Virus record (IMG/VR): IMGVR_UViG_3300042691_011955
Direction: 5' to 3' (one strand)
DNA: 64,000 nt
From: an uncultured virus (IMG/VR IMGVR_UViG_3300042691_011955)
Taxonomy: Duplodnaviria > Heunggongvirae > Uroviricota > Caudoviricetes
Made by a program: the position numbers and the translations under genes. Of the stretch, positions 1 to 12,178 are shown piece by piece (position 1 is the stretch's first letter; each line of letters begins with the position of its first letter). The notes under the pieces were generated by a model. That model made no database searches, had not been told where the DNA came from, and saw nothing but the letters and a program-made list of their open reading frames with translations.

Positions 1-76
1 CGAAAAGGCTTATGAAAAGGAAGACGAAGCTATGATGATTCGTCTAATTAAAATCCGTCAATCACTTTGGACATGA
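1..76 (+). CDS. 3' end of hypothetical phage protein (truncated by window edge)
   Basis: Frame reads ...EKAYEKEDEAMMIRLIKIRQSLWT-stop; TGA overlaps the next ATG (ATGA). Confidence 0.6.
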   Translation, partial: EKAYEKEDEAMMIRLIKIRQSLWT

Positions 77-831
77 ATATGACATCAGTAACACAGCTTG
101 GACAGATACTAGCACAAATTAAACCAGCGCAATACACCTGGTTAGATGATTTTGAAGTTAAGACTGAAGATCAAGAAAAGACGTTTGATGCACCATTCGA
201 TGTGTTAGCCTCTATTATTTCTGCTATTGACGCAGACGCACCACTTTGGGAAATTGGAGAAGCTTGGAAATCTCTTAAGTATTCGAAAGGATTCGATGGC
301 CTAAAGGTAACTGCTCCTAACGATTTTCAAATTCAGCGAGCAAATCAGATTCGCAAGTATTACAGGAATAAACTTACTATTCTAGCATTGAAGTCGCAGA
401 GTATGAGTAACTTTAGAGTAGATCTGCAAGAGCTGTTAAGCATGGATCCAACAAAATTAAAATTAAAGTTTTTGCCTATGATGATTCGCTTGCCTTCTTT
501 TTATAAAGAAGATACTATAATAGATAATCTAAAGAAAACTACAGTAGTGCCCATGCATAATCGTGCTCGACCCGAAAAGGAATCTAGGACATTGACATTT
601 GTAGATAAGATTCATCGCAAAACTAAAAATCAAGATCTAAATTGGTACTGGTTTGTAAATGAACAAAATGTACTGCATCGTTTGAGCGTAGACGGCAAAA
701 ACAAACTAAGTCATATTCTTGAAAAGTTTCTAGATAAACCTGTAACCATTGAGGCAAATTATCCTGTTCAGACTGTGCGAGGAACTGATCTTAGTTTCTT
801 CAGTGTTGAAGGTGACTGGAAATTGTTATGA
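73..831 (+). CDS. hypothetical protein
   Basis: Long ORF; ATG at 73 overlaps upstream stop. Confidence 0.7.
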   Translation: MNMTSVTQLGQILAQIKPAQYTWLDDFEVKTEDQEKTFDAPFDVLASIISAIDADAPLWEIGEAWKSLKYSKGFDGLKVTAPNDFQIQRANQIRKYYRNKLTILALKSQSMSNFRVDLQELLSMDPTKLKLKFLPMMIRLPSFYKEDTIIDNLKKTTVVPMHNRARPEKESRTLTFVDKIHRKTKNQDLNWYWFVNEQNVLHRLSVDGKNKLSHILEKFLDKPVTIEANYPVQTVRGTDLSFFSVEGDWKLL

Positions 832-1049
832 ATCGAGATGTAAGAACTCTAGTAGATCTTGCTATGGAAGTTGAAATGGAAGATCCTATTGACTGGGGCA
901 TGTTAGCTATTAGTGAACATGATGCTTATGAACTTATGGCTTCCCATGTACTTGAGATGAATAATGATAACTTGACAAACAAGGCTATTATTGTTAAACT
1001 ACTAGTAGAGAATTTTGTACTAAATCTCAAACTAATGGAATTAAGATAA
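828..1049 (+). CDS. hypothetical protein
   Basis: 73-aa ORF overlapping both neighbours. Confidence 0.65.
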   Translation: MNRDVRTLVDLAMEVEMEDPIDWGMLAISEHDAYELMASHVLEMNNDNLTNKAIIVKLLVENFVLNLKLMELR

Positions 1050-1291
1050 TGACAGTTAAAAAAACATACGCAGATACTGTTGATCTGCACTGCACGGATA
1101 AAAATGAAATAGTGCCAGCTGAAATCCTAGAATTTCGCCCAGGCATGCTTATTAGTGTAAGTATACAAAGAAAAATTAAAATGATACTTAAATTTAATCA
1201 TCGAGGCAATAACTATGTTGGCTCGATGGCAGGTCTTGAGTTTACTACTGCTGGCCCAAAAGAAACTATTACTTACGAAGGAAGAAGATAA
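1049..1291 (+). CDS. hypothetical protein
   Basis: 80-aa ORF with TAATG coupling at both ends. Confidence 0.65.
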
Positions 1292-1908
1292 TGCCACTAA
1301 TCCCAATGGTTGTTGAACAAGAGACTCGCGGCGAGCGTTCATATGATATTTACAGCCGCTTGCTCAAAGATCGAATTGTTATGCTCAACGGCCCTGTAGA
1401 AGATAATATGGCTAATGTAATTGTAGCACAGTTATTATTTTTAGAAGCAGAGAATCCAGACAAAGACATTAACCTATATATTAATTCGCCTGGCGGTGCA
1501 GTTACCGCAGGACTAGCTATCTACGACACAATGCAGTACATCAAATGTGATATTCGTACTATTGTCATGGGTCAGGCATGTTCAATGGGCTCGTTCCTAG
1601 CACAAGCAGGCACGGCAGGTAAGCGAGTAGTACTGCCTGAAAGCCGTACTATGATACATCGAGTTAGTTCAGGTACTCCTGGAACACGTGGTTCAGTTCA
1701 TGTACAAGAACTTCAATTTGAAGATGCTATTCGTTCAATGGAAGAAAGTAAAAAACTCAACAAGCGATTAACCGAGCTGTATGTCAAACACAACACCAAA
1801 GGCAAACAATACGATGAGCTTTTTGAAACAATGAAATTTGATACTTTCTTAAATGCACAAGAAGCGGTTGATTACGGTTTAGCAGATAAAGTTGTAGAGA
1901 AACGATAA
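1291..1908 (+). CDS. clpP: ATP-dependent Clp protease proteolytic subunit
   Basis: [39 protein letters not shown] (catalytic Ser), MIH (catalytic His). Confidence 0.97.
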
Positions 1909-2096
1909 TGAGTGACGGAGGAAAAGGCAGTGCAAGAAGAAAAGGCGCAGATGATGCAAAATACAGCAGTGGATGGGACCGAATCTACGGTACAAGATAC
2001 AATGGCGGCACTAAAAGGGATCCCAACAGAGGAAGCCCTGACCCAGATGCTCAAAGAACAGATCCTAAGAGTGACGTTCCTCAAACTAGACGGTGA
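1908..2096 (+). CDS. small protein (MSDGGKGS...WDRIYG), overlapping the next ORF
   Basis: ATG coupled to clpP stop; N-terminus resembles small phage proteins recalled from memory. Confidence 0.4.
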   Translation: MSDGGKGSARRKGADDAKYSSGWDRIYGTRYNGGTKRDPNRGSPDPDAQRTDPKSDVPQTRR

Positions 2097-2289
2097 TCAA
2101 AGAATTATGACCTGTACAAAAAGTTTGAATTATATTCCAGAAAAGTCACGTCCATCCAACAGTTCAAAGCCAAGCAAGCCTGGCACAATCAATGTTTGGG
2201 ACATAGACGCTGACAACTGGCGTAGTTTTCGATATGATCGAGTTCAAGCAGTTGAACTTAACATTTCAAACATACAAGAGGTTGGTTGA
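1912..2289 (+). CDS. WYL_2/SH3-like fold protein; start uncertain
   Basis: VTFLKLDGDQRIMTCT and VWDIDADNWRSFRYDRV motifs. Confidence 0.75.
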   Translation: MTEEKAVQEEKAQMMQNTAVDGTESTVQDTMAALKGIPTEEALTQMLKEQILRVTFLKLDGDQRIMTCTKSLNYIPEKSRPSNSSKPSKPGTINVWDIDADNWRSFRYDRVQAVELNISNIQEVG

Positions 2290-2314
2290 CAAATCTCCGT
2301 TTTGAGCCTATTAT
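2286..2314 (+). promoter_or_regulatory. sigma70-type promoter for leader 1
   Basis: TTGACA-17-TATTAT; late-type ATAAATA also at 2338-2344. Confidence 0.65.
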
Positions 2315-2349
2315 AAGGTAGTTTTTTAGAACTGGGATAAATAAAATAT

Positions 2350-2466
2350 ATGAAAAAGGAAATGCTTTCAATGCTATTCGTAACACTATCCCCCGTAGCG
2401 TCAACAACACTTGGATCAGAGAATCCAGGCAGTGACGCCACCATGACTAGGGTTATGAAGTTGTAA
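2350..2466 (+). CDS. putative attenuator leader peptide 1 (MKKEMLSMLFVTLSPVASTTLGSENPGSDATMTRVMKL)
   Basis: Short ORF between promoter and terminator; codons 11-31 use only amino acids whose tRNAs are in cluster 1. Confidence 0.7.
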   Translation: MKKEMLSMLFVTLSPVASTTLGSENPGSDATMTRVMKL

Positions 2467-2485
2467 GTAAGCACTAACAAACTTT

Positions 2486-2517
2486 AAAAACCCTGGACTA
2501 AACACCCAGGGTTTTTT
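2486..2517 (+). terminator. intrinsic terminator of attenuator 1
   Basis: AAAAACCCTGG...CCAGGGTTTTTT; its 5' arm can instead pair with 2447-2468 (antiterminator). Confidence 0.85.
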
Positions 2518-2543
2518 GTTGCGTAAAAACAACAAAAAAACAG

Positions 2544-2572
2544 TTGACAGGCAAGCAATAAGGCAATACAAT
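2544..2572 (+). promoter_or_regulatory. sigma70 promoter P1 of tRNA cluster 1
   Basis: TTGACA-17-TACAAT. Confidence 0.75.
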
Positions 2573-2636
2573 AGACACTTACTTAAACAACAAAGCGGCT
2601 GCAGAGTTGTTCAAGTAAAAAGATTTTAAAAAGTAG

Positions 2637-2665
2637 TTGACACAGAACTTTTTCGGTGTTATACT
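2637..2665 (+). promoter_or_regulatory. sigma70 promoter P2 of tRNA cluster 1
   Basis: TTGACA-17-TATACT with extended -10 TGn. Confidence 0.8.
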
Positions 2666-2667
2666 AC

Positions 2668-2702
2668 GTAAACTGTAACAAGTTTACAAACGTTCTTTAA
2701 AA
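2668..2702 (+). promoter_or_regulatory. rrn-like boxB/boxA antitermination site
   Basis: Hairpin GTAAACT/AGTTTAC followed by CGTTCTTTAAAA (rrn boxA consensus TGCTCTTTAACA). Confidence 0.6.
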
Positions 2703-2772
2703 AGTTGAATACGGAAACAGATTAATCTGTTTTCATCTGTGTACAAAAGTGTACAGTTGAAAGCAGATTTAT

Positions 2773-2848
2773 TCCTCAGTAGCACAGCGGTAGTTGCACT
2801 TGACTGTTAATCAAGGTGTCCGTGGTTCGATCCCACGCTGAGGAGCCA
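2773..2848 (+). tRNA. tRNA-Asn(GTT)
   Basis: Cloverleaf, loop CT-GTT-AA, TTCGA T-loop, CCA. Confidence 0.95.
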
Positions 2849-2853
2849 ATTTA

Positions 2854-2943
2854 GGAGCGTGGGCCGGATGGTAAGGCAGCGGTTTGCTAAACCGTAGATC
2901 ACGTAAAAAGGGTCACAGGGTTCGACTCCCTGACGCTCCGCCA
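2854..2943 (+). tRNA. tRNA-Ser(GCT)
   Basis: Cloverleaf with long variable arm, TT-GCT-AA, GCCA end. Confidence 0.95.
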
Positions 2944-2951
2944 AATTAAAT

Positions 2952-3026
2952 GCACGATTCGTCTATCGGTTAGGACGCTGCCCTTTCAAGGCGGAAAGAC
3001 GAGTTCGATTCTCGTATCGTGTACCA
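2952..3026 (+). tRNA. tRNA-Glu(TTC)
   Basis: Cloverleaf, CT-TTC-AA, CCA. Confidence 0.95.
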
Positions 3027-3031
3027 AGTTT

Positions 3032-3276
3032 TTTAGTAAGTTGTTTAAGGTTACCTAGTCCGCTAGGGGTGAACGAAAAGGTGATTGCGTAGCAGAAATG
3101 CTCGGCCTTGATACCCATGAAGCAGGAGGGTTCTAGAGTATGACGAGACACCATCGAGTCAAAGGGCAAGAACTATTCCAAACTCCAGGAAGGCGGCGGA
3201 ACTACTAGGCCTGTAATGAGGTCTTGACGCAAGTTGGTGATGCGTGTCAAGAACTTCCTCAAACAATTTATTAAAG
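3032..3276 (+). ncRNA. unknown ~245-nt structured RNA
   Basis: Ends pair (TTTAGTAAGTTGTTTAAGG / CCTCAAACAATTTATTAAA); internal hairpins include AGCA-GAAA-TGCT and CCTAG/CTAGG. Confidence 0.6.
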
Positions 3277-3281
3277 ATTTT

Positions 3282-3358
3282 GCACCGTTAGCTCAGTTGG
3301 TTAGATCGCTTGCCTGTCACGCAAGAGGCCAGGGGTTCGAGTCCCCTACGGTGCGCCA
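3282..3358 (+). tRNA. tRNA-Asp(GTC)
   Basis: Cloverleaf, CT-GTC-AC, CCA. Confidence 0.95.
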
Positions 3359-3364
3359 TATTAG

Positions 3365-3392
3365 TTGACTTTGATTGTAAAGAGTGTACAAT
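3365..3392 (+). promoter_or_regulatory. internal sigma70-type promoter
   Basis: TTGACT-16-TACAAT. Confidence 0.5.
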
Positions 3393-3411
3393 TAAAATAT
3401 AGAAAGTTTTT

Positions 3412-3485
3412 GCCCTTATAGTTAAATGGTATAACGACGGTTTTGTAATCCGTAGTTTGCAGTTCGATTCTGTGTAGGGGCACCA
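3412..3485 (+). tRNA. tRNA-Thr(TGT)
   Basis: Cloverleaf, TT-TGT-AA, CCA. Confidence 0.93.
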
Positions 3486-3499
3486 AAGTGTTAGTTTTT

Positions 3500-3583
3500 G
3501 CCCCGGTGGTGTAATGGTAGCCACGCTGGTCTTAGAAGCCAGTGCCGCAAGGCGTGTCGGTTCGAGTCCGACCTGGGGCACCA
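3500..3583 (+). tRNA. tRNA-Leu(TAG)
   Basis: Cloverleaf with variable arm, CT-TAG-AA, CCA. Confidence 0.95.
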
Positions 3584-3593
3584 ATGTTAGTAA

Positions 3594-3667
3594 GCGGGAT
3601 TAGTTTAATGGTAAAACAGCAGATTTCCAATCTTCGGTCATCAGTTCGATTCTGATATCCCGCTCCA
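3594..3667 (+). tRNA. tRNA-Gly(TCC)
   Basis: GCGGG start, TT-TCC-AA, TCCA end. Confidence 0.93.
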
Positions 3668-3683
3668 ATTTTAAAAGGTAGAT

Positions 3684-3908
3684 ATGAAAGCAAAAACTTT
3701 AAGTCGTGGTCCAACTATTGATACTAATAAATGTGTTGAAAATGTTGGTGGTAGATTTGATCTAGTATTAATTGCTTCAGTTAGAGCTAGAGAAATAGCA
3801 AGGAAACACAGGAACGACGAAATGTCTACCCAAGTTAATGCGCCAGTTTCTGCACTGCTTGAAATTCAAGAAGGCAAAATTGGTAGAGAGTATCTAAGAA
3901 AAGTATAA
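3684..3908 (+). CDS. rpoZ: RNA polymerase omega subunit homologue
   Basis: VENVGGRFDLVLIASVRAREI...ALLEIQEGKI matches the omega core motifs. Confidence 0.88.
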   Translation: MKAKTLSRGPTIDTNKCVENVGGRFDLVLIASVRAREIARKHRNDEMSTQVNAPVSALLEIQEGKIGREYLRKV

Positions 3909-3909
3909 T

Positions 3910-3987
3910 CGGAGTGTGGCGCAGTCTGGCTAGCGCACCTGGTTTGGGACCAGGGGGTCCAAGGTTCGAATCCTTGTACTCCGACCA
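3910..3987 (+). tRNA. tRNA-Pro(TGG)
   Basis: CGG start, TT-TGG-GA, CCA. Confidence 0.95.
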
Positions 3988-3993
3988 TTTTTT

Positions 3994-4068
3994 GGGCTGT
4001 TAGTGATAATGGGAGCACGGGGCCTTTGCAAGGCTTAGGTCGGGGTTCGATCCCCCGACGGTCCACCA
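3994..4068 (+). tRNA. tRNA-Ala(TGC)
   Basis: G3:U70 pair, TT-TGC-AA, CCA. Confidence 0.95.
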
Positions 4069-4073
4069 AATAT

Positions 4074-4147
4074 GCGGGTATGATGTAATGGTAACCTGAA
4101 ACCTTGCCAAGGTTTATTCGCGAGTTCGATTCTCGCTACCCGCTCCA
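4074..4147 (+). tRNA. tRNA-Gly(GCC)
   Basis: GCGGG start, TT-GCC-AA, TCCA end. Confidence 0.93.
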
Positions 4148-4176
4148 AATGTTTTAGAAATATTTTTAAAAAGATG

Positions 4177-4205
4177 TTGACAAGACAGTAAAAATTTGCT
4201 AAAAT
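4177..4205 (+). promoter_or_regulatory. sigma70 promoter for the large ncRNA
   Basis: TTGACA-17-TAAAAT with TGn extension. Confidence 0.75.
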
Positions 4206-4212
4206 AGACACA

Positions 4213-5105
4213 TGTTAAGAATTTAAGGGTGGTTTATCATCCTGTAGGCGGCTTGCCGTTTACAAAGAATAAGTGTGGCGACACACCCAAAGCTAGAATG
4301 CCTACATACTAGCGCCAGCAATGGTTCACGTAAACAAGCCTGCTCACTACCGCGAGGTAGCGTTCACTCATAAGACCGGTGGATGTAACAGCAAAGCTGA
4401 TGTATGGGAAAGAACATTGTTCGACGTGCCGCAAGGAACACGGGGCAGTGAAAAGTAACAGGTGGTGCTGACTTCCATATAAAACCAATCAGTTAGTTGG
4501 TATGAGAAAGGGTAGTGTACTTGTTCGAGGGGTCGCACCTAAGAGCTCGTATACAATGTAAATGGTTAGTGGGCTGTAGTAATACAGTACACCGATCGTG
4601 AAACATCACTGAGTAGCTCGCGAGGCAAAAGGTATGTGGTGAGTTGTATTTTGTATTCCAAAAGAGTATGAAGCAACTGAGGCAGCTCATCGCGGTAGGT
4701 TAATGTAGATCAATGGTAGATCATCTTCCTGTTAAGAAGAATGCTGTCGGTTCAAATCCGATCATTTAAACAAAAATGCAAAGACTGCCTCGGTCGTATG
4801 TGAAAAGTATCTAATACTTGAGTGGTAACACAATCAAGTCTAATGAAGCTCGCAAGGTAACATTAGTTTATACTGGAAGTTTCGTAGGGTGTTAGCGCAC
4901 TCGAATAGCTCGCAAGGTTAACGGAATAGATGGTGTAGAATAGCATATGGCGTCAAGTCTACTGCCTGACTTAAAACGGCGATACTGTAAGCAGACTAGG
5001 TTACATAGTGATATGGACTTAGTGGATGTCTAGAGAACGTATACTCGCAAGGTGTACGGTAATGCTAGAGGTGCTTATGGTTAAGATGTAATCTCAGTCT
5101 TAACA
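4213..5105 (+). ncRNA. giant structured ncRNA, GOLLD-like
   Basis: ~890 nt with no credible ORF, many GCAA/GCGA-tetraloop hairpins, tRNA-cluster context, embedded tRNA-like domain. Confidence 0.75.
4699..4770 (+). other. tRNA-Asn(GTT)-like domain inside the large ncRNA
   Basis: D arm GATC/GATC, anticodon arm TCTTC-CTGTTAA-GAAGA, T arm GTCGG-TTCAAAT-CCGAT; only 4-bp acceptor stem, no CCA. Confidence 0.75.
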
Positions 5106-5180
5106 CTATTCTAAAACACATTACCACAAACAGCAATTAGAGCTGGTTGTATAACAATGTCGTAGTGTGTTTCAGAATAG
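5106..5180 (+). ncRNA. long-stem-enclosed small RNA
   Basis: CTATTCTAAAACACATTAC pairs with GTAGTGTGTTTCAGAATAG; inner CAGC-AATTAGA-GCTG hairpin. Confidence 0.55.
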
Positions 5181-5188
5181 CAGAAATG

Positions 5189-5424
5189 TTATGCACATGA
5201 CAATTCGTTGTCAGCAAGAGAATGTCACGCTATAAAGGTTTCTTCGAAGGACTGATATAGTAGAAGGGGACGGGTTCAACTCCCGGCTGATCGGAAGATC
5301 GGCGCAGATTGGTTGCTAACTGGACTAGTATCCCAAGTGACGTACCGAGTCCCGCTCGAGCTTGTTAATTCGGGTGAATGGTGCTTATAACGATGGAAGT
5401 ACTAATGAGTTGTCAGCTGTATAA
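5189..5424 (+). ncRNA. unknown ~235-nt structured RNA
   Basis: Terminal helix TTATGCA..TGACAATTCGTT / AATGAGTTGTCA..TGTATAA; several internal hairpins. Confidence 0.6.
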
Positions 5425-5432
5425 TATTTTGA

Positions 5433-5511
5433 AGCGGAGTAGAGGAGTCCAGTCGTCCTCGCTAGTCTCATAAGCTAGAGATCGCAGGTGCGAATCCTGC
5501 CTCCGCAACCA
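5433..5511 (+). tRNA. tRNA-Met(CAT), initiator-like, atypical
   Basis: CT-CAT-AA loop, 1:72 mismatch, AACCA end; T-loop TGCGAAT. Confidence 0.85.
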
Positions 5512-5525
5512 GTTTTATTTTCAAA

Positions 5526-5615
5526 GGAAGCGTGGCAGAGCCCGGCTTATTGCGTTAGTCTTGAAAACTAAAGACTCGAAAGGGTCCGTGAGTTCGAATC
5601 TCACCGCTTCCGCCA
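5526..5615 (+). tRNA. tRNA-Ser(TGA)
   Basis: Long variable arm, CT-TGA-AA, GCCA end. Confidence 0.95.
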
Positions 5616-5630
5616 GACATTAAAAAATAC

Positions 5631-5659
5631 TTGACAAGTAGACACAAATCATATACAAT
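5631..5659 (+). promoter_or_regulatory. sigma70 promoter
   Basis: TTGACA-17-TACAAT. Confidence 0.75.
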
Positions 5660-5685
5660 TAACACATAGAGAAAAGGACACAAAC

Positions 5686-6258
5686 ATGGAACTTACACTT
5701 CGTAAAGCAAGCGCACTTCAGAACAGCATCAACGATACTGTTAAAAGTATCACGTTGACACAAACAATTCGCATCAACGAGTTCCAAGAGGCTGAAGCTG
5801 AAATATCTAAGGCTGCTCAGGAATTTAACAGCAATGTGTTTCGTCGTGTAGCACTGACAGATGTGCTGTACGAAATTCGCAAGGCAGTGAGCCGTGCAAA
5901 TGCACAAGCAGGTGTCAATGAAAAGTTGGCAGACTTGGCTCAGCTTGAGAAAGATATCCAATTCTTTTCAGGTCTAACAGCTCATGACGTTCGTGAGTCT
6001 GCTCAAGTCATTGAGGGCAAGTTGAATAAAATTCGGAACCGCAAAGAAGACACTCGTGCAAGTTTGTACGGCCACAGTGATGAAGTTAGTACTTCTGTAT
6101 TGACTCGCAAAGATGTAGATACATTCCGTGCAAAAGTAGCAGAAGCCAAAAAGGCCAAGCAGAAATTGCAGGACGAGCTCTTAGAGCTTAATGTTCGTAC
6201 AACTATTGCCCTAAGTGGTAAGGCTGTGGACATTCTTAAGCACGAAGAATTGATCTAA
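5686..6258 (+). CDS. helical/coiled-coil hypothetical protein (reminiscent of the DIP1984 family)
   Basis: 190 aa, AAGGA RBS, own promoter; family resemblance from memory only. Confidence 0.7.
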   Translation: MELTLRKASALQNSINDTVKSITLTQTIRINEFQEAEAEISKAAQEFNSNVFRRVALTDVLYEIRKAVSRANAQAGVNEKLADLAQLEKDIQFFSGLTAHDVRESAQVIEGKLNKIRNRKEDTRASLYGHSDEVSTSVLTRKDVDTFRAKVAEAKKAKQKLQDELLELNVRTTIALSGKAVDILKHEELI

Positions 6259-6261
6259 GGA

Positions 6262-6870
6262 AAACCCGGGCTCCCTTGCCCGTTATACACAGGGGGTGGG
6301 GCAGTCACCATAAAGAGTGCTAGGCGTGTAGTGCATTGGCCTTCCGATCCCGTGTAGGGAATCCGGGGACGCATTAGGTGAGGTTTAGCACCTTTCCAAA
6401 AGAATAAATGTTATGGACAGAGTAACCGCTCAGTCTAGGGCTCATGTGGTGTGAGTAGCTAGACACTTTATAAATGCTCTTTGAAGTTTAACTACACTTG
6501 AGAACACCAGTAGGTACTAAGTCGACTAACTGCTGAACGTGCAAGGAAGATACGGAGTTAAACAGTTTGGTTCGATTCCAACAGAGAGCACCTATAAGGT
6601 TTTGGTAGTATGCTGGTAACAGTAAACTACCCGGAAGAAGGCGAGAGATGAGGATGAACACCGTTATCGCTTCATGCGATGACTCCAATACTGGCAATCA
6701 GTCTTGAAAACTGATCGTGTTTGTATGCCCCGAATCTATCGAACTTGTGATTTGCTGTTCGGAAATACGCAAGCCACTGTGCTTTGCATATTGTAATTTG
6801 CTTAGGGCCTAGAGTAACCTCAGCCCGTTTGCACCTTGCACAGTTCATTACTTACTTGCTAACTTTCGTT
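6262..6870 (+). ncRNA. ~600-nt structured non-coding region with several modules
   Basis: No credible ORF; pseudoknot, hairpins, tRNA-like module, isolated anticodon loop, TTG-rich repeats, T-tract end. Confidence 0.55.
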
Positions 6871-6904
6871 TTTTTATAAGTAATCTTACAAAGGAGACAA
6901 ACTT

Positions 6905-7579
6905 ATGTATGCAACAGGTGTTTTTCGTTCTGCATCGCAGATTAATAGTGCAATGGGCCGTGTTTACGGACATATGGCACTGGCAGTTATCACATCAATG
7001 ATTGTAAGTTATCTTGTAGGATCAAATACAACGCTGATGGAATTTTTCTTTACAGGCGCAATGAAATGGCTTGTAATCTTTGCGCCGCTTGTAGCCATTC
7101 TTGGCGTTAGCTTTGCAATGGACAAAATGAGTAAGAGTGCGTTACAGCTATTTTTACATGGATTTGCCGCATTAATGGGTCTAAGTTTTGCTACAATCTT
7201 TGTAGTATATAACATGGGAAGCATTGTAAGCGCATTCATGGGAGCTGCCGTTCTATTTGCTACAATGAGTGGCTATGGCTACTTCACTAAACGTAATTTG
7301 GACGGAGTTGGCCAATTTATGTTCATTGGGTTGATTGCGATTGTTATTGCAAGTATAATCAATATTTTTATTGGTAGTACAGTTTTTCAAATGGTCATTA
7401 GTGCTATCGGAATTATTGTGTTCTTAGGCTTAACAGCATACGACACACAAAAGATTCGTGAGATGGTTAGTTACGACAATGATGGTAAGGCAGAAATTGC
7501 AGGCGCTCTTAGCTTGTACTTAGACTTTATCAACTTGTTCTTAATGTTACTACAACTATTTGGTGGTCGTAAGGACTAA
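6905..7579 (+). CDS. Bax inhibitor-1/YccA family membrane protein
   Basis: Multiple hydrophobic helices, LTAYDTQKI, ALSLYLDFINLFL. Confidence 0.95.
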   Translation: MYATGVFRSASQINSAMGRVYGHMALAVITSMIVSYLVGSNTTLMEFFFTGAMKWLVIFAPLVAILGVSFAMDKMSKSALQLFLHGFAALMGLSFATIFVVYNMGSIVSAFMGAAVLFATMSGYGYFTKRNLDGVGQFMFIGLIAIVIASIINIFIGSTVFQMVISAIGIIVFLGLTAYDTQKIREMVSYDNDGKAEIAGALSLYLDFINLFLMLLQLFGGRKD

Positions 7580-7586
7580 AGAATTT

Positions 7587-7661
7587 GCCTGGTTAGCTCA
7601 GGGGTAGAGCAACGCCTTTACACGGCGAAGGTCCGCGGTTCGAAACCGTGACCAGGTACCA
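7587..7661 (+). tRNA. tRNA-Val(TAC)
   Basis: Cloverleaf, TT-TAC-AC, CCA. Confidence 0.95.
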
Positions 7662-7731
7662 GAAATGTTTCCGTATTCAAGAGTGTGGCAAAAATACAAC
7701 AATATTTTTGTCACTTTTTAAAGAAAATCTC

Positions 7732-7760
7732 TTGACAGAGATAAATAAATACAGTATACT
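7732..7760 (+). promoter_or_regulatory. sigma70 promoter for leader 2 and tRNA cluster 2
   Basis: TTGACA-17-TATACT; spacer contains late-type ATAAATA. Confidence 0.8.
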
Positions 7761-7796
7761 ATACACATAGTAAGAAATTAACTAACAGAAAGAAAG

Positions 7797-7898
7797 ATGA
7801 TCAAAATGTTTAAGCAAATTAGAAAACATCAGATGTTTTGCATTCGCTGGTATCGACTACCAGGCGAGGGCCTTTCTGTAGGAGCAAGTTACGCATAA
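7797..7898 (+). CDS. putative attenuator leader peptide 2 (MIKMFKQIRKHQMFCIRWYRLPGEGLSVGASYA)
   Basis: First 20 codons use only, and all of, the 10 amino acids of tRNA cluster 2. Confidence 0.8.
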   Translation: MIKMFKQIRKHQMFCIRWYRLPGEGLSVGASYA

Positions 7899-7920
7899 CC
7901 AGTAACAGCTCAAAAAACAA

Positions 7921-7962
7921 AAAGACCCTCGGAATGTAAAATACTCCGGGGGTTTTTCTTTT
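7921..7962 (+). terminator. intrinsic terminator of attenuator 2
   Basis: AAAGACCCTCGGA...TCCGGGGGTTTTTCTTTT; its 5' arm can instead pair with 7865-7892. Confidence 0.85.
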
Positions 7963-8062
7963 AGTGCTATAGGAAACGAGATCCTGCTATCACTTTAAAC
8001 TAGCAAATGGGCGGCCTAGGGGATGAAGTCTGTGGCGACAACACAGATGTTAAAATCCTAGA

Positions 8063-8140
8063 GTAGTTAAGAACACTATAGGGACGACTGGACTCATAGC
8101 CCAGAACTTTGTAAAAGGCGTTATTAGTGTTCTTAACTAC
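8063..8140 (+). ncRNA. perfect 16-bp stem enclosing a CAT anticodon-like hairpin
   Basis: GTAGTTAAGAACACTA / TAGTGTTCTTAACTAC; inner CTGGA-CTCATAG-CCCAG. Confidence 0.55.
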
Positions 8141-8200
8141 ACACTCTTCATTCGCCCTGCGACGGCGTCTAAAAGCATAGCGGAGAGTGTCACTAAGTTT

Positions 8201-8287
8201 GGAGATGTAGGAAAATTGGTAACCCCAGTGGACTGTAAATCCGCCGCCCTTCGGGCACTACTGGTTCGACTCCAGTCATCTCCACCA
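8201..8287 (+). tRNA. tRNA-Tyr(GTA)
   Basis: CT-GTA-AA, variable arm, CCA. Confidence 0.95.
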
Positions 8288-8292
8288 AACAT

Positions 8293-8367
8293 AGCCGCGT
8301 AGCTCAGAGGAAGAGCACTCGCTTGATAAGCGATAGGTCGACATTTCGAAACTGTCCGTGGCTACCA
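8293..8367 (+). tRNA. tRNA-Ile(GAT)
   Basis: TT-GAT-AA, CCA; imperfect T stem. Confidence 0.88.
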
Positions 8368-8374
8368 AATTAAT

Positions 8375-8448
8375 GTATCTCTAATGTAATGGCAGCATCA
8401 CAGTCTCCAAAACTGTTCGTCGGGGTTCGAGTCCCTGGAGGTACGCCA
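8375..8448 (+). tRNA. tRNA-Trp(CCA)
   Basis: CT-CCA-AA, GCCA end. Confidence 0.94.
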
Positions 8449-8455
8449 AGTATAA

Positions 8456-8530
8456 CTCGCTTTAGTATAATGGATAATACAGTAGGCTTCTACCCTACGA
8501 ATATGGGTTCGATTCCTGTAGGCGAGGCCA
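8456..8530 (+). tRNA. tRNA-Arg(TCT)
   Basis: CT-TCT-AC, CCA. Confidence 0.94.
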
Positions 8531-8537
8531 GTAATAC

Positions 8538-8615
8538 GCACAGGTGGCAGAGAGGCCCAATGCAGTGGATTGCAAATCCGCAAAACCGTGAGTTCGAATC
8601 TCACCCTGTGCTCCA
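8538..8615 (+). tRNA. tRNA-Cys(GCA)
   Basis: TT-GCA-AA, U73 discriminator, CCA. Confidence 0.94.
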
Positions 8616-8737
8616 GTTACTGCAACAATCCGCTCGGGCTTCGTAGCGGAATGTAGTATTGAAGCCTATAAGTCCTGTGGAAGCAGGGGTCTAGATCCGT
8701 GTCCAAAGCGGTGTGGCTAACGAAGTGCCAAATTTAT

Positions 8738-8811
8738 TGGGGTATAGTGTAATGGTAGCACCACAGACTTTGACTCTGTTAGTCTAGGTTCGAACCCTAG
8801 TACCCCTGCCA
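8738..8811 (+). tRNA. tRNA-Gln(TTG)
   Basis: CT-TTG-AC, GCCA end. Confidence 0.94.
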
Positions 8812-8812
8812 T

Positions 8813-8888
8813 AGTGATGTAGCATAGCGGCTAATGTACCTCCTTCATACGGAGTTTATCGTCGGTTCGAGTCCGACCATCACTACCA
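8813..8888 (+). tRNA. tRNA-Met(CAT) elongator (or lysidine-modified Ile2)
   Basis: TT-CAT-AC, paired 1:72, CCA. Confidence 0.88.
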
Positions 8889-8906
8889 ACTTTAAAGGAG
8901 AAATAT

Positions 8907-9098
8907 ATGCCAACGATTAGATATCTTGATACTAGTATGTACGGATCGTATTTTGTCGACTGCGAAATATTAGAAAAAATAGACGAAGACACATTTAAGA
9001 TTAAATTCTATGATGACAATATAGATGAATATGAAATAAAGGTAGTTGAGCGTGATCGTCTTGAGTTTCCTAAGTTTAGTGATTACGCATCTTATTAA
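8907..9098 (+). CDS. small acidic hypothetical protein inside tRNA cluster 2
   Basis: AAGGAG RBS, 63 aa. Confidence 0.7.
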   Translation: MPTIRYLDTSMYGSYFVDCEILEKIDEDTFKIKFYDDNIDEYEIKVVERDRLEFPKFSDYASY

Positions 9099-9272
9099 GG
9101 AGAAAACAAAATGGGGCGATCGTAGTTTTACTTATGATAGTAGCTTTAATTTACTTTATTGACAAAAATTTAAAATAGGAGAATGACATGAAACGTTCAA
9201 GTAAACGTTAGTGTCAACCTTGACCCCGTATTGGTCCTGGTTGGCACATTAAATCAATTTAATTACGACCAA

Positions 9273-9348
9273 CCACTTGTAGCGTTAACGGTAGCGCACT
9301 TGACTCTTAATCAATGAGGTGTGAGTTCGAATCTCACCGGGTGGACCA
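9273..9348 (+). tRNA. tRNA-Lys(CTT)
   Basis: CT-CTT-AA, CCA. Confidence 0.9.
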
Positions 9349-9352
9349 ATAC

Positions 9353-9428
9353 GGGAGTATGGTGAAATGGTTATCACAGCAGACTTTTAATCTGCCAGTT
9401 CCGGGTTCGAGTCCCGGTGCTCCTACCA
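9353..9428 (+). tRNA. tRNA-Lys(TTT)
   Basis: CT-TTT-AA, CCA. Confidence 0.95.
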
Positions 9429-9558
9429 TAGATAAACACACTTTCAATCTGAATTGACAGATACAAACAACCAAGGGGAGCCTCTGGGTTCATCCAGTTT
9501 CATCCTGAATTGACAGGAACAAGGTTGTAAGGGGAGCCGAGTGTGTTTTTCTATGGTA
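9424..9558 (+). ncRNA. stem-enclosed RNA containing two 41-nt repeat units
   Basis: Outer 19-nt stem; units 9442-9482 and 9498-9538 with covarying hairpins. Confidence 0.7.
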
Positions 9559-9561
9559 ATA

Positions 9562-9636
9562 CGGCCCTTGGTGAAATGGATATCATTTCGGTCTTCGAAA
9601 CCGACGGTGGGAGTTCGATCCTCTCAGGGCCGGCCA
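9562..9636 (+). tRNA. tRNA-Arg(TCG)
   Basis: CT-TCG-AA, CCA. Confidence 0.93.
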
Positions 9637-9643
9637 AATATAT

Positions 9644-9718
9644 ACCCCTGTCGTTCAATGGATAGGATACCATGCTACGAACGTGGGGACGGTGGTTCGA
9701 TTCCATCCAGGGGTGCCA
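9644..9718 (+). tRNA. tRNA-Arg(ACG)
   Basis: CT-ACG-AA, CCA. Confidence 0.93.
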
Positions 9719-9724
9719 ATCAAT

Positions 9725-9798
9725 GGTGTTGTTAGTGTAGTGGTAACACGACTGTCTGTGAAACAGTAGACCAGGGTTCGATTCCCGACTTCACCCCA
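9725..9798 (+). tRNA. tRNA-His(GTG), imperfect stems
   Basis: G-1, CT-GTG-AA, C73, CCA; two U:U mismatches in the acceptor stem. Confidence 0.8.
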
Positions 9799-9802
9799 AA
9801 TT

Positions 9803-9924
9803 TGTAGTAACCAGCTAGGTGCTGTGTAAAAGGTGTTGCGGATAGTAGAGGTCTCATAGAGATAAGCTCGCTGTCGTTAAAGATCGTGACGCAAACTAAT
9901 TGAGTTTTGTCTCAACCTACTACA
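9803..9924 (+). ncRNA. stem-enclosed structured RNA
   Basis: TGTAGTA/TACTACA closing helix with internal hairpins. Confidence 0.45.
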
Positions 9925-9934
9925 TTTTATTTTT

Positions 9935-10010
9935 GCCGCTTTAGCTGATGTGGTCATAGCAACGGATTGAAAATCCGAGGAACCCTGTTCGATCCGGGGA
10001 GGCGGCACCA
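9935..10010 (+). tRNA. tRNA-Phe(GAA)
   Basis: TT-GAA-AA, CCA. Confidence 0.92.
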
Positions 10011-10034
10011 TTAACTGTGTATGATTTTATATTA

Positions 10035-10111
10035 TGGAGCGACCGGGGGATTCGAACCTCCGCTTCTTGGGTTACAGTCCCAAGTGTAGTGACCACTCTA
10101 CTACGAGTCGC
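10035..10111 (-). tRNA. atypical tRNA-like gene, identity unclear
   Basis: Reverse complement folds with D arm, 6-bp anticodon stem around ACTGTAA, TTCGAAT T-loop and TCCA end; bulged acceptor and T stems. Confidence 0.65.
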
Positions 10112-10119
10112 ATATTGAT

Positions 10120-10962
10120 TTAAGGTATTGTGCTACTAGTTGCCAACAGTTCTTTTATTTTGTCAAAAATTATCTTATTTCCTTCTGCGTTCATTGCATT
10201 AGCAGATTGTTGATAACCAATGTTATATTGGCTGTTATCTTTATATAGCTCGCGCATAGAAAGATCTACAGGTCCAGACGTAATAGTATACCAAGAAGGG
10301 TACCATTGATCTTTACTAAAAAAATGTACACAGGGTATTTTTTTATTATGCAAGTACGAATCAATTTGCATTAATGCCCCATAGTATCTGTTTAATTGTA
10401 AATCTGGATGATACATATATTTTCTAGTTAGTTCAAAAGCAGTCCAAAGTTCTTGGTAAAACTTTTCATCGTCTGATGCTATTCGAACCTGATCTAATAG
10501 TGCTTGTTTAATTTCACTACTATCCCCATCTTGCCATTTTATAAATGCATCAGTATAGTTTTCAAAATGAATGTTATAATATTCTAATAATTGTAAACAT
10601 GCTCCGTTAGGGACGTTTTCAAAAAAATCAATATAAAAATCATGTTCTTTAAAGTCAGTTCCCCACATTGATTCTACCCAATTTCGAGCAGTGTATTTTC
10701 TATCAAATGTAGTTTTGTCTATGTTCGAAACATCTTTGTTCCAGCTAGGCATAAAGATATGATACGGTGCGGCATGGAATATAATTGCTGTATCTAGTTT
10801 TTTAGTTTTCTTTAAATTGAATAATATTCTTTCCTCACTGCAATGTGGGATTCCAGAATGGACAATATTAGCATCAAACTCTTTTTTTAATAAACTTACA
10901 AAATTCCATTCTTGGTTAGGATCATATCTAGAAATACTATCTCCATACACACCTATGTTCAT
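10120..10962 (-). CDS. hypothetical protein (SGNH-hydrolase-like N-terminus)
   Basis: IGVYGDS start motif; 280 aa. Confidence 0.7.
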   Translation of the reverse strand: MNIGVYGDSISRYDPNQEWNFVSLLKKEFDANIVHSGIPHCSEERILFNLKKTKKLDTAIIFHAAPYHIFMPSWNKDVSNIDKTTFDRKYTARNWVESMWGTDFKEHDFYIDFFENVPNGACLQLLEYYNIHFENYTDAFIKWQDGDSSEIKQALLDQVRIASDDEKFYQELWTAFELTRKYMYHPDLQLNRYYGALMQIDSYLHNKKIPCVHFFSKDQWYPSWYTITSGPVDLSMRELYKDNSQYNIGYQQSANAMNAEGNKIIFDKIKELLATSSTIP

Positions 10963-11047
10963 TCTGAACTCCTAAAAAAGTATTTAGTAGTAGTTTTTTT
11001 TTAAAAATTATATGTGGATCGGTAGAAGATTAATTTTACCACACCAG

Positions 11048-11076
11048 TTGACAACATTACAACTTGACTATATAAT
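11048..11076 (+). promoter_or_regulatory. sigma70 promoter
   Basis: TTGACA-17-TATAAT. Confidence 0.85.
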
Positions 11077-11082
11077 AGCAAT

Positions 11083-11313
11083 ATGTATAACGTAATAGGA
11101 AAAGAAGAAACACTCAAAGTTCTTACACTTGCTGAAGCAATGAATGTTGCAAAGCATATGAATGAATATGTAACTATCGTTGGAAAAGATTTTGAAATCG
11201 TTGGCATATTTGGTGCTGACACAGTGAGCAATGGTAAACTACCAAGTGGTCACGATTACACTTGGAACAAGGCTAGCCGAATTGGTCGTGTGAAAAAAGA
11301 ACGTTCATCATGA
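11083..11313 (+). CDS. hypothetical protein, probably leaderless
   Basis: ATG 7 nt after the -10 element. Confidence 0.7.
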
Positions 11314-11711
11314 TAAAAGAACTATTCGAAGGCCTTGATGAAAAAACAAAAACCTGCGGAATGTGCTTATTGAATCTTCCTTTAGGAATGTTTGGTACAG
11401 ATGGTGGTGCAAAGTATCTTAGATATGAATGTAAACCATGTGCAAAGAAACAATCTGCTTTATTGAAGAAGATAAAATCGACTGCACCTATTAGACCTAA
11501 AGATTATACATGCCCTATTTGTAACAGAAACGAAGAAGAAGCAAAGGGACACAATCCTAATAAAAAAGGAGTTTGGTGTGCAGACCACGATCATGCTACT
11601 GGAAAATTTAGAGGTTGGCTTTGTCATAAATGTAATTTAGGGTTAGGTAATATGAATGATGATATTAGTAGACTAGAATCTGCTATAAAATACTTAAAGG
11701 AGCGAGTATAA
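11310..11711 (+). CDS. endonuclease VII-like (His-Me finger) protein
   Basis: CPIC...[22 protein letters not shown]. Confidence 0.88.
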
Positions 11712-12178
11712 TGCCTTGGATTGAAAATGTAGCAGCCGCTGATATTCCAACAGGATTCCATCACGACGCCGGCGCTAACAGTATGCTGATCAGTATTGTG
11801 GATCCTGCCAGCTGGCGTCCTGAAGCTAAACACCAATTCAAAGAGCGTCATAACTTTGAATTTTTAGATGTAGAAGAAAAAGACGAAGTGTTAGAGGAAG
11901 CAATGAAGTGTAGTCACGAGCAGGCCGCAGAGCTTGTTCGACTGCTACAACACGCATTAGAGAACCGTATGAATGTTGTTGTGCATTGTTATGCAGGCGT
12001 ATGTCGTAGTGGTGCTGTGTGCGAAGTCGGAGTCATGATGGGCTTCAATGACACAGAACGTTTCCGTAGTCCAAACTTGCTAGTCAAGCATCGTATGATG
12101 AAGGCTTTGGGTTGGACATATGATGCTGACGAAAAACCAAACATTGATGATTGGCGTACATTTAGGAGTATTGATTAA
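11711..12178 (+). CDS. protein-tyrosine/dual-specificity phosphatase-like
   Basis: VHCYAGVCRS (CX5R). Confidence 0.88.
   Translation: MPWIENVAAADIPTGFHHDAGANSMLISIVDPASWRPEAKHQFKERHNFEFLDVEEKDEVLEEAMKCSHEQAAELVRLLQHALENRMNVVVHCYAGVCRSGAVCEVGVMMGFNDTERFRSPNLLVKHRMMKALGWTYDADEKPNIDDWRTFRSID

Follow-up and report, generated by a model that had tools for sequence, protein, structure and literature searches.

A set of 13 transfer RNA (tRNA) genes in an uncultured lake phage is preceded by a short open reading frame (ORF) whose first 20 codons name exactly the ten amino acids of those tRNAs. We consider it likely that this ORF belongs to a ribosome-mediated leader-peptide transcription attenuator, which would gate the tRNA operon, be on by default and be shut by quick reading of the leader. 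The window, i.e., the whole stretch of 64,000 nucleotides (nt) that was analysed, is taken from the minus strand of a 98-kb IMG/VR virus record (IMGVR_UViG_3300042691_011955; CheckV completeness, 27%), and all 28 tRNA genes that ARAGORN detects in the record lie inside it. The 13 genes (positions 8201-10010) and the promoter, ORF and terminator in front of them are referred to as cluster 2 and leader 2, respectively, and a sister unit upstream is composed of leader 1 and cluster 1. The match between leader 2 and cluster 2 is real and well above chance. Together with the anatomy of the unit, selection on the composition of homologous leaders and the covariation of two alternative helices are the observations on which the proposal stands.

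Leader composition and the downstream tRNA genes

The elements of the unit and its immediate surroundings are as follows.

7685-7714, + strand: terminator-like hairpin and T-run after tRNA-Val (12-pair stem, then TTTTT)
7732-7760, + strand: sigma-70-type promoter TTGACA-17-TATACT (11/12 matches; transcript start expected near 7767)
7797-7898, + strand: leader ORF of 33 codons and a stop codon, peptide MIKMFKQIRKHQMFCIRWYRLPGEGLSVGASYA (by translation)
7797-7856, + strand: sensing part, 20 codons, with no amino acids other than M, I, K, F, Q, R, H, C, W and Y, each of them present
7840-7871, + strand: 1:2 hairpin able to hold the antiterminator strand (-13.6 kcal/mol, by folding)
7865-7931, + strand: predicted antiterminator, core CGAGGG (7865-7870) with CCCTCG (7926-7931)
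7920-7962, + strand: intrinsic terminator, stem 7921-7957 and then a U-tract (-19.0 kcal/mol, by folding)
7964-8200, + strand: conserved structured RNA between the terminator and the first tRNA (fold z = -3.2)
8201-10010, + strand: cluster 2, 13 tRNAs, in the order Tyr, Ile, Trp, Arg-TCT, Cys, Gln, Met, Lys-CTT, Lys-TTT, Arg-TCG, Arg-ACG, His, Phe (by ARAGORN)

A first-pass annotation of this DNA had proposed the promoter, the ORF, a 1:2 hairpin, an antiterminator, a terminator at 7921-7962 and the 13 tRNAs, and all of them were recovered. The promoter is present with 11 of the 12 consensus matches, the frame is open from 7797 to 7898, the hairpin and the terminator fold with the energies given above, and ARAGORN finds exactly 13 tRNAs within 8201-10010, the same genes with the same anticodons. 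In the predicted antiterminator, 7865-7892 pairs with 7902-7931 and takes up the terminator 5′ arm, as had been claimed, and the homologous helix covaries in relatives. Its core is extended by 7871-7892/7902-7925 and capped by a hairpin at the stop codon (7882-7911), with an energy of -25.0 kcal/mol for the segment 7860-7935. The fold of the whole leader-2 RNA is better than those of 200/200 shuffled sequences (z = -4.5). The terminator at 7921-7962 is absent from the + strand list of a consensus terminator scan. Since the hairpin at 7685-7714 closes the upstream unit, cluster 2 depends on its own promoter, and no other promoter with at least 10 of the 12 matches was found between the leader-2 terminator and tRNA-Tyr.

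The leader is divided into two parts by composition. Codons 1-20 hold exactly the ten amino acids of cluster 2, while 12 of the last 13 residues fall outside this set, so that both halves of the original observation hold. These ten amino acids account for a fraction of 0.40 of the window when it is translated in six frames. The run of in-set residues through leader 2 is 22 residues long (20 in the ORF and 2 before the ATG) and contains all ten; it is the longest in all six frames of the window, the runner-up being 14. Under standard wobble rules, 20/20 sensing codons are readable by cluster-2 tRNAs, and at least one codon is present for each of the 13 tRNAs.

No close relative of the unit was found among cultured phages, as blastn of 7660-8200 gave no match, tblastn of the leader gave only chance matches (E ≥ 4) and the tRNA cluster matched only at single tRNAs. 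Homologous modules were found in related jumbo-phage contigs of 210-383 kb with arrays of 27-38 tRNAs: a consensus promoter, a short ORF and a terminator stand approximately 0.4-0.7 kb 5′ of each array. Three scans of IMG/VR for sequence patterns, based on a conserved coding stretch, on the leader 3′ end and on a terminator variant, yielded further leaders and brought the total, including the two leaders of the window, to 77 distinct leader regions. Because the first set was found by a fixed coding motif, the conservation of that motif carries no weight; the other two sets are independent of it. Both window leaders align with the family, and leader 2 has the tail ..G(A/S)(G/S)YA* and the terminator common to the L167/L198 type, as well as the conserved Trp column.

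A near-consensus promoter lies within 120 nt upstream of the ATG in 70 of 73 related leaders. Diverged as they are, 73 distinct peptides all keep an open frame, and the leaders have a weak Shine-Dalgarno sequence or none. In approximately 20 of the 73 (L105, L112, L124, L182, L199, L205, L218 and others), the -35 hexamer starts just 34-38 nt before the ATG; judging from this spacing, the transcript should begin at or next to the start codon, i.e., as a leaderless messenger RNA (mRNA). All 20 amino acids occur in 43 of the 44 distinct peptides of the first set (43-54 residues) and in 65 of the 76 distinct leaders over all sets, some of which are as short as 38 residues. The expectation is 1.7-7.4% for random peptides of phage proteome composition, and 105 of 2487 real 47-residue windows contain all 20. 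Cys, His, Trp and Tyr are mostly present in one copy per leader, and the alignment columns used number 15 for the single Cys, 12 for His, 8 for Tyr and 8 for Phe, with Trp fixed in one. A residue lost at one place is thus re-placed elsewhere, which points to selection for its presence and not for its position or for a peptide fold. The composition of the leaders, as far as can be read from these sequences, is under selection, which would be sensible only if the ORF is read.

These results bear on the possibility that the ORF simply encodes a small phage protein and is followed by a terminator of the usual kind, its match with the tRNA set being coincidental or a by-product of constraints on RNA structure. 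Phage tRNA regions commonly contain small ORFs (those of T5 are numerous, although none shows the pattern), and the finding that the leaders match nothing in Pfam or PHROGs is neutral in this respect. However, a stretch of 20 in-set residues at a set frequency of 0.40 is unique in the window, all 20 amino acids are kept in 65/76 diverged leaders against 2-7% expected, and the 3′ end of the ORF covaries with the terminator arm. We therefore regard an ordinary gene as a highly improbable explanation.

The sister unit has the same layout.

2286-2314, + strand: promoter of the cluster-1 leader (11/12)
2350-2466, + strand: cluster-1 leader ORF, 38 codons, MKKEMLSMLFVTLSPVASTTLGSENPGSDATMTRVMKL
2447-2454, + strand: leader-1 antiterminator strand CTAGGGTT, complementary to the terminator 5′ arm AAAACCCTGG
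2486-2518, + strand: leader-1 terminator
2773-7661, + strand: cluster 1 tRNAs, Asn, Ser, Glu, Asp, Thr, Leu, Gly, Pro, Ala, Met and Val (11 amino acids)

Codons 1-29 of leader 1 include all 11 amino acids of cluster 1, and the only extras are K2, K3 and F10. Clusters 1 and 2 jointly cover all 20 amino acids, and the sensing parts of leaders 1 and 2 do likewise. For the relatives, 6-10 kb were fetched per array. Wherever a family locus includes downstream DNA, a same-strand tRNA array begins 300-1040 nt past the leader, and no tRNA lies on the opposite strand. Arrays of at least 27 tRNAs cover all or nearly all amino acids, and the informative leaders for tracking are those heading partial arrays, namely the two of the window and L218. 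The sensing part of L218 names 16 amino acids, the same 16 as are served by its 20 downstream tRNAs, and the tRNAs for the missing Cys, Asp, Glu and Tyr sit upstream of the leader promoter. Among 39 leader/array pairs, which are phylogenetically non-independent and do not include the window, an amino acid absent from the leader had no downstream tRNA in 5 of 6 cases, and an amino acid present in the leader had none in 78 of 774 cases (Fisher p = 7e-5). The expectation that leader sets track array content in relatives is thus supported by L218 and by this comparison; it fails in L167 and L228 and finds no signal in synonymous codons, as described later.

The same data bear on the natural signal. 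The attenuator might respond to host amino-acid starvation through uncharged tRNA and tune the phage programme to host nutrition; its mechanism would be blind to the difference between a missing and an uncharged tRNA, and the trp, his and ilv attenuators respond to charging. Against this, extra tRNA does not relieve an amino-acid shortage, so that the feedback would stay open, and the leaders match what the operon can supply, i.e., tRNAs. Starvation as the natural signal seems improbable to us.

Some observations concern the leader family more widely. L177, L191 and L194 carry large repeat-rich ORFs (489-798 residues), tail-fibre-like in appearance, that end in ..TVGASYA*, and the last 18 nt of these ORFs match the same 18-nt pattern as the end of leader 2; an exchange of the leader tail, with its terminator, for the 3′ end of a structural gene may have taken place. 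L231 contains, on the reverse strand at 5485-5541, an ORF of 18 codons with 17 different amino acids (MAYNRAIKQHCLPGVETS), located before a terminator-like hairpin approximately 300 nt 5′ of the main leader. When all fetched loci were scanned generically for more modules of an ORF plus a terminator, only other frames of known leaders and this 18-codon ORF came up.

Alternative helices and stall geometry

In 77/77 leader regions, the terminator 5′ arm pairs with a stretch of 6-14 nt that lies in the final 48 nt of the ORF. When the preceding 48 nt were used as a control, contiguous pairing of at least 6 nt with the 5′ arm was found in 13/77. The two strands change together across subfamilies, giving the pairs GGGGTCC/GGACCCC, AGGGTCC/GGACCCT, AGGGTTC/GAACCCT, AGGGTTT/AAACCCT, AGGGTCTC/GAGACCCT and AGGGTTCC/GGAACCCT; in the window, the pairs are CTAGGGTT/AAAACCCTGG for leader 1 and CGAGGG/CCCTCG for leader 2. 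In an alignment of 44 sequences (A1), the antiterminator helix is 95.8% paired, as compared with 15-65% when it is slid, and the terminator helix is kept in 44/44. One antiterminator pair of A1 is GC in 23 sequences, AU in 16, GU in 2 and other in 3, and the terminator tolerates G-U there. The stop-codon hairpin varies on both sides in the alignment, as judged by eye. The covariation that the first-pass annotation had anticipated in relatives is borne out by these compensatory variants and by the contrast with the slid helices. In L149, a natural deletion fuses the leader ORF to the terminator 3′ arm and the 5′ arm is gone; from this structure, termination should be lost.

Folding of nascent transcripts that end at the 5′ arm pairs the arm with the ORF-end segment in 72/76 leaders. 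In the window, the minimum-energy fold of the nascent transcript forms the antiterminator despite the 1:2 hairpin at 7840-7871. According to these models, the switch looks on by default when no ribosome is present and is shut by a ribosome reaching the ORF end; the 1:2 hairpin, which would act by holding the antiterminator strand, may be less important than in trp.

The position at which a stalled ribosome would spare the antiterminator was obtained by masked-footprint folds, in which a nascent-transcript model carries a ribosome at each A-site codon. For leader 2, the antiterminator stays intact with the A-site at any of codons 1-20, and it disappears when the A-site is at codons 21-31 or at the stop codon. 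If the footprint extends 9-15 nt beyond the first base of the codon in the A-site, the core (from 7865) is free only up to codons 18-20. The switch in composition (codon 20/21) thus coincides with the last stall position that spares the antiterminator. In leader 1, the boundary is near codon 29, which is the end of the listed amino acids. The boundary depends on the assumed footprint and RNA start: a cruder, family-wide run from the ATG put the leader-2 boundary earlier, and for many relatives it put the boundary one codon before the last needed Glu. The trp/his/ilv-type architecture, which the first-pass annotation had taken as established, is backed by the relatives through the kept frame, the complete or set-matched repertoire and the covarying antiterminator/terminator pair.

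Proposed operation and its weighing

We infer that the leader is translated and that stalling on it decides the fate of the transcript. Transcription would start from the promoter at 7732-7760, and a ribosome would translate the 33-codon leader close behind the polymerase. When reading is smooth, the ribosome at codons 21-34 would cover or unwind 7865-7892 and the stop-codon hairpin, the terminator at 7921-7962 would form, and transcription would stop before the tRNAs. When reading is slow, with the ribosome held at any of codons 1-20, or when no ribosome is present, the antiterminator at 7865-7931 would form first and the terminator would not. The polymerase would then continue into the structured RNA at 7964-8200, which would be the first readthrough product, and into the 13 tRNAs. 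Since the 20 codons name exactly the amino acids of the operon's tRNAs, this arrangement would be a negative feedback on the decoding capacity for those amino acids. The trigger could be the loss of host tRNAs, by shut-off or by tRNA-cutting defences, or a shortage of amino acids. A role in defence, by which the phage replaces tRNAs cut by anticodon nucleases, may be the purpose. The split array may be explained by an ancestral leader with all 20 amino acids that gated a full array; after the array was divided, each leader would have been re-spelled to the amino acids of its own tRNAs. Every tRNA set would thus have its own feedback loop, turned on once the cognate tRNAs of the host are lost through shut-off or tRNA-cutting immunity. 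We give this history roughly even chances.

At low depth, contigs from RNA libraries cover 7667-7950, including the leader, and those of relatives span 7799-8013, including the terminator; such contigs show neither strand nor ends, nor do they tell RNA from carried-over DNA.

Several findings weigh against a sensor for particular tRNAs that acts as the gate of the operon, and they are gathered here. One group concerns the codons. Each amino acid is represented by just 1-3 codons with no run of identical codons, and sensitivity to one slow codon may be low with so few codons per amino acid. The first-pass annotation had also pointed to matching isoacceptors: the three Arg and two Lys tRNAs are indeed all represented, but with the codon usage of the phage the probability of such coverage by chance is approximately 0.21 for the former and 0.64 for the latter, so that this part of the match does not exceed chance. 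In the family, codons readable by the tRNAs of the array number 1008 of 1213, as compared with 996 expected, showing no enrichment. Matching at the level of synonymous codons was rejected on these two results.

A second group concerns tracking. L167 has no Val codon although Val tRNAs follow, L228 has neither Cys nor Trp although those tRNAs are located 2.7 kb downstream, and it is common for a leader to name an amino acid without a tRNA detected within the 6-10 kb fetched (the 78/774 cases above). Tyr seems to be missing from many arrays, possibly because its tRNA escapes detection. In the near-identical contig L002, a 47-nt deletion at approximately 8410, corresponding to 9310-9360 of the window, runs from the middle of tRNA-Lys(CTT) to the start of tRNA-Lys(TTT); ARAGORN calls neither Lys gene there, and the leader with its Lys codons is unchanged. 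This deletion may be a recent variant or an assembly error.

A third group concerns gating and folding. At least one near-consensus promoter stands behind the terminator in 32 of 73 arrays, including cluster 1 of the window, and the attenuator is therefore not always the sole gate. In cluster 1, strong promoters are found at 2544-2572 and 2637-2665, behind the leader-1 terminator and ahead of the first tRNA (2773), and thus cluster 1 is not gated by leader 1 alone. In minimum-energy folds of the full transcript, the antiterminator is kept in 47/76 leaders. The 1:2 element of the family is weak, just a GAUC/GGUC helix being predicted. Lastly, one RNA-library contig also covers DNA upstream of the promoter, so that DNA carry-over is possible.

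Part of this evidence would suit a general sensor of translation capacity, which would be on by default, be shut by whichever ribosome keeps up with the polymerase, and so respond to ribosome availability or the overall elongation rate, as under host shut-off or ribosome-targeting toxins, and not to particular amino acids. The antiterminator is the default in folds without a ribosome (72/76 nascent, 47/76 full), approximately 20 leaders are on leaderless mRNAs as judged from their promoters, and there is no preference among synonymous codons. Such a sensor, however, needs no set composition, yet 65/76 leaders keep all 20 amino acids while the rare residues move, and the leaders of partial arrays (both window leaders and L218) draw only on the amino acids of the arrays that they head. 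We consider a general sensor unlikely, and an attenuator set by the tRNAs that it controls remains our preferred reading.

Neighbouring features and comparison with known systems

The structured RNA at 7964-8200 was recognised by a motif search in 44 of 77 related loci, including L088, L089, L218 and L228. It has a hairpin with the loop AACGNGR, a motif GGGCGG and several stems that vary on both sides, as judged by eye. No credible Rfam family was found for it in scans of 1-12000 (E ≤ 1) and 7960-8205 (E ≤ 10). Upstream, within tRNA cluster 1, a GOLLD RNA (Rfam RF02032, 201 bits) is located at 4636-5100, probably from approximately 4200, and encloses tRNA-Asn (4699-4771); the contig L089 also has a GOLLD RNA. 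The region 4244-4930 is covered by contigs of three lake or river RNA libraries, whose summed depths of hundreds to thousands are far above those of the rest of the region. A 74-residue ORF within the same cluster (3684-3908) gives a Pfam match to the omega/Rpb6 family of RNA polymerase subunits (PF01192, E 1e-10), and the array of L087 holds a similar ORF of 76 residues. A phage omega subunit beside tRNA genes may be relevant to the handling of these promoters by the host polymerase.

Between the two tRNA clusters, 6905-7579 encodes a Bax inhibitor-1/YccA-type membrane protein (Pfam PF01027, E 2e-53). This gene has approximately 600 relatives in IMG/VR contigs, most of the fetched ones having no tRNA genes within 6 kb; when it was used as an anchor for relatives of the array, the array was common only to near-identical contigs. 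The downstream gene, used in the same way, gave five contigs, all near-identical. Within cluster 2, two mini-ORFs, MIVALIYFIDKNLK (9134-9178) and MKRSSKR (approximately 9188-9211), stand with a hairpin 5′ of the Lys tRNA pair and are kept upstream of Lys tRNAs in four distinct phage contigs. They may act as a Lys/Arg leader of a second tier or form part of a promoter.

To our knowledge, the control of phage tRNA genes is largely uncharted, and the arrays are usually treated as constitutive cargo for codon usage or anti-defence. A leader whose codon list equals the downstream tRNA set would be a feedback control of decoding capacity. It makes testable whether phage tRNAs respond to host tRNA loss, and the promoters have the sigma-70 consensus. 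If the proposal is true, attenuation would serve as a counter-defence trigger and would provide a natural design for a sensor settable to any group of amino acids. The window shows the arrangement cleanly: one complete tRNA set is divided into two halves, each headed by a leader, and the two leaders complement each other (11 and 10 amino acids). Both have homologues among the all-20 leaders of relatives, and no second strong promoter is present between the leader-2 terminator and cluster 2. In the parts of the literature available to us, no account was found of leader-peptide attenuation of tRNA genes, of leaders with all amino acids or of the control of phage tRNA arrays, in agreement with the first-pass annotation, which knew of no description for such arrays.

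A motive for making phage tRNAs on demand is given by phage T5, whose tRNA-Lys rescues infection from the PARIS system (PMC11464382, in the part available); the same part describes no control of tRNA expression. In a brief look at the T5 tRNA region, 14 small annotated ORFs were translated, and no leader/tRNA-set pattern was found. Short ORFs matched to the tRNAs of T5 are thus absent from these 14 ORFs, and none are mentioned in the available parts of PMC4810235 and PMC11464382.

Among sensors of specific tRNAs, the T-box riboswitches are alike in switching between a terminator and an antiterminator according to the state of the tRNAs; unlike the phage leader, they bind tRNA directly and need no ORF. 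The Rfam T-box covariance model gave no match in 1-12000 (E ≤ 1) or 7960-8205 (E ≤ 10), which speaks against a T-box riboswitch. The ermC, cat and bmrCD resistance leaders are alike in that expression is induced when a ribosome stalls on a short leader and changes the fold of the RNA downstream. Their trigger is a drug together with a specific nascent peptide, whereas in the phage leaders selection acts on which amino acids occur and not on a motif of the peptide.

The closest cargo is that of the pheST attenuator, in which a Phe-rich leader precedes the genes for phenylalanyl-tRNA synthetase. It shares with the phage system the leader-peptide attenuation of a gene of the decoding apparatus, but it is cellular and concerns one amino acid and a synthetase, whereas the phage system concerns whole tRNA sets. 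In enterobacteria, multivalent leader attenuators are known for thr (Thr, Ile) and ilvGMEDA (Leu, Val, Ile), and those for a single amino acid for trp, his, leu and pheA. The phage unit resembles them in three respects: a short ORF with regulatory codons is proximal to the promoter, the terminator 5′ arm can pair instead with a segment at the ORF end, and an early-stalled ribosome would permit the antiterminator that a ribosome at the stop codon would block. It differs in that it would regulate tRNAs and a structured RNA, and not biosynthetic enzymes; in that 10 amino acids are named by the leader (16 or 20 by those of relatives), with 1-3 codons each and no runs; and in that the anti-antiterminator is weak, the folds suggesting a default-on switch. 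The proposed mechanism is thus that of classical enterobacterial attenuation, while the cargo and the many-amino-acid leader are new.

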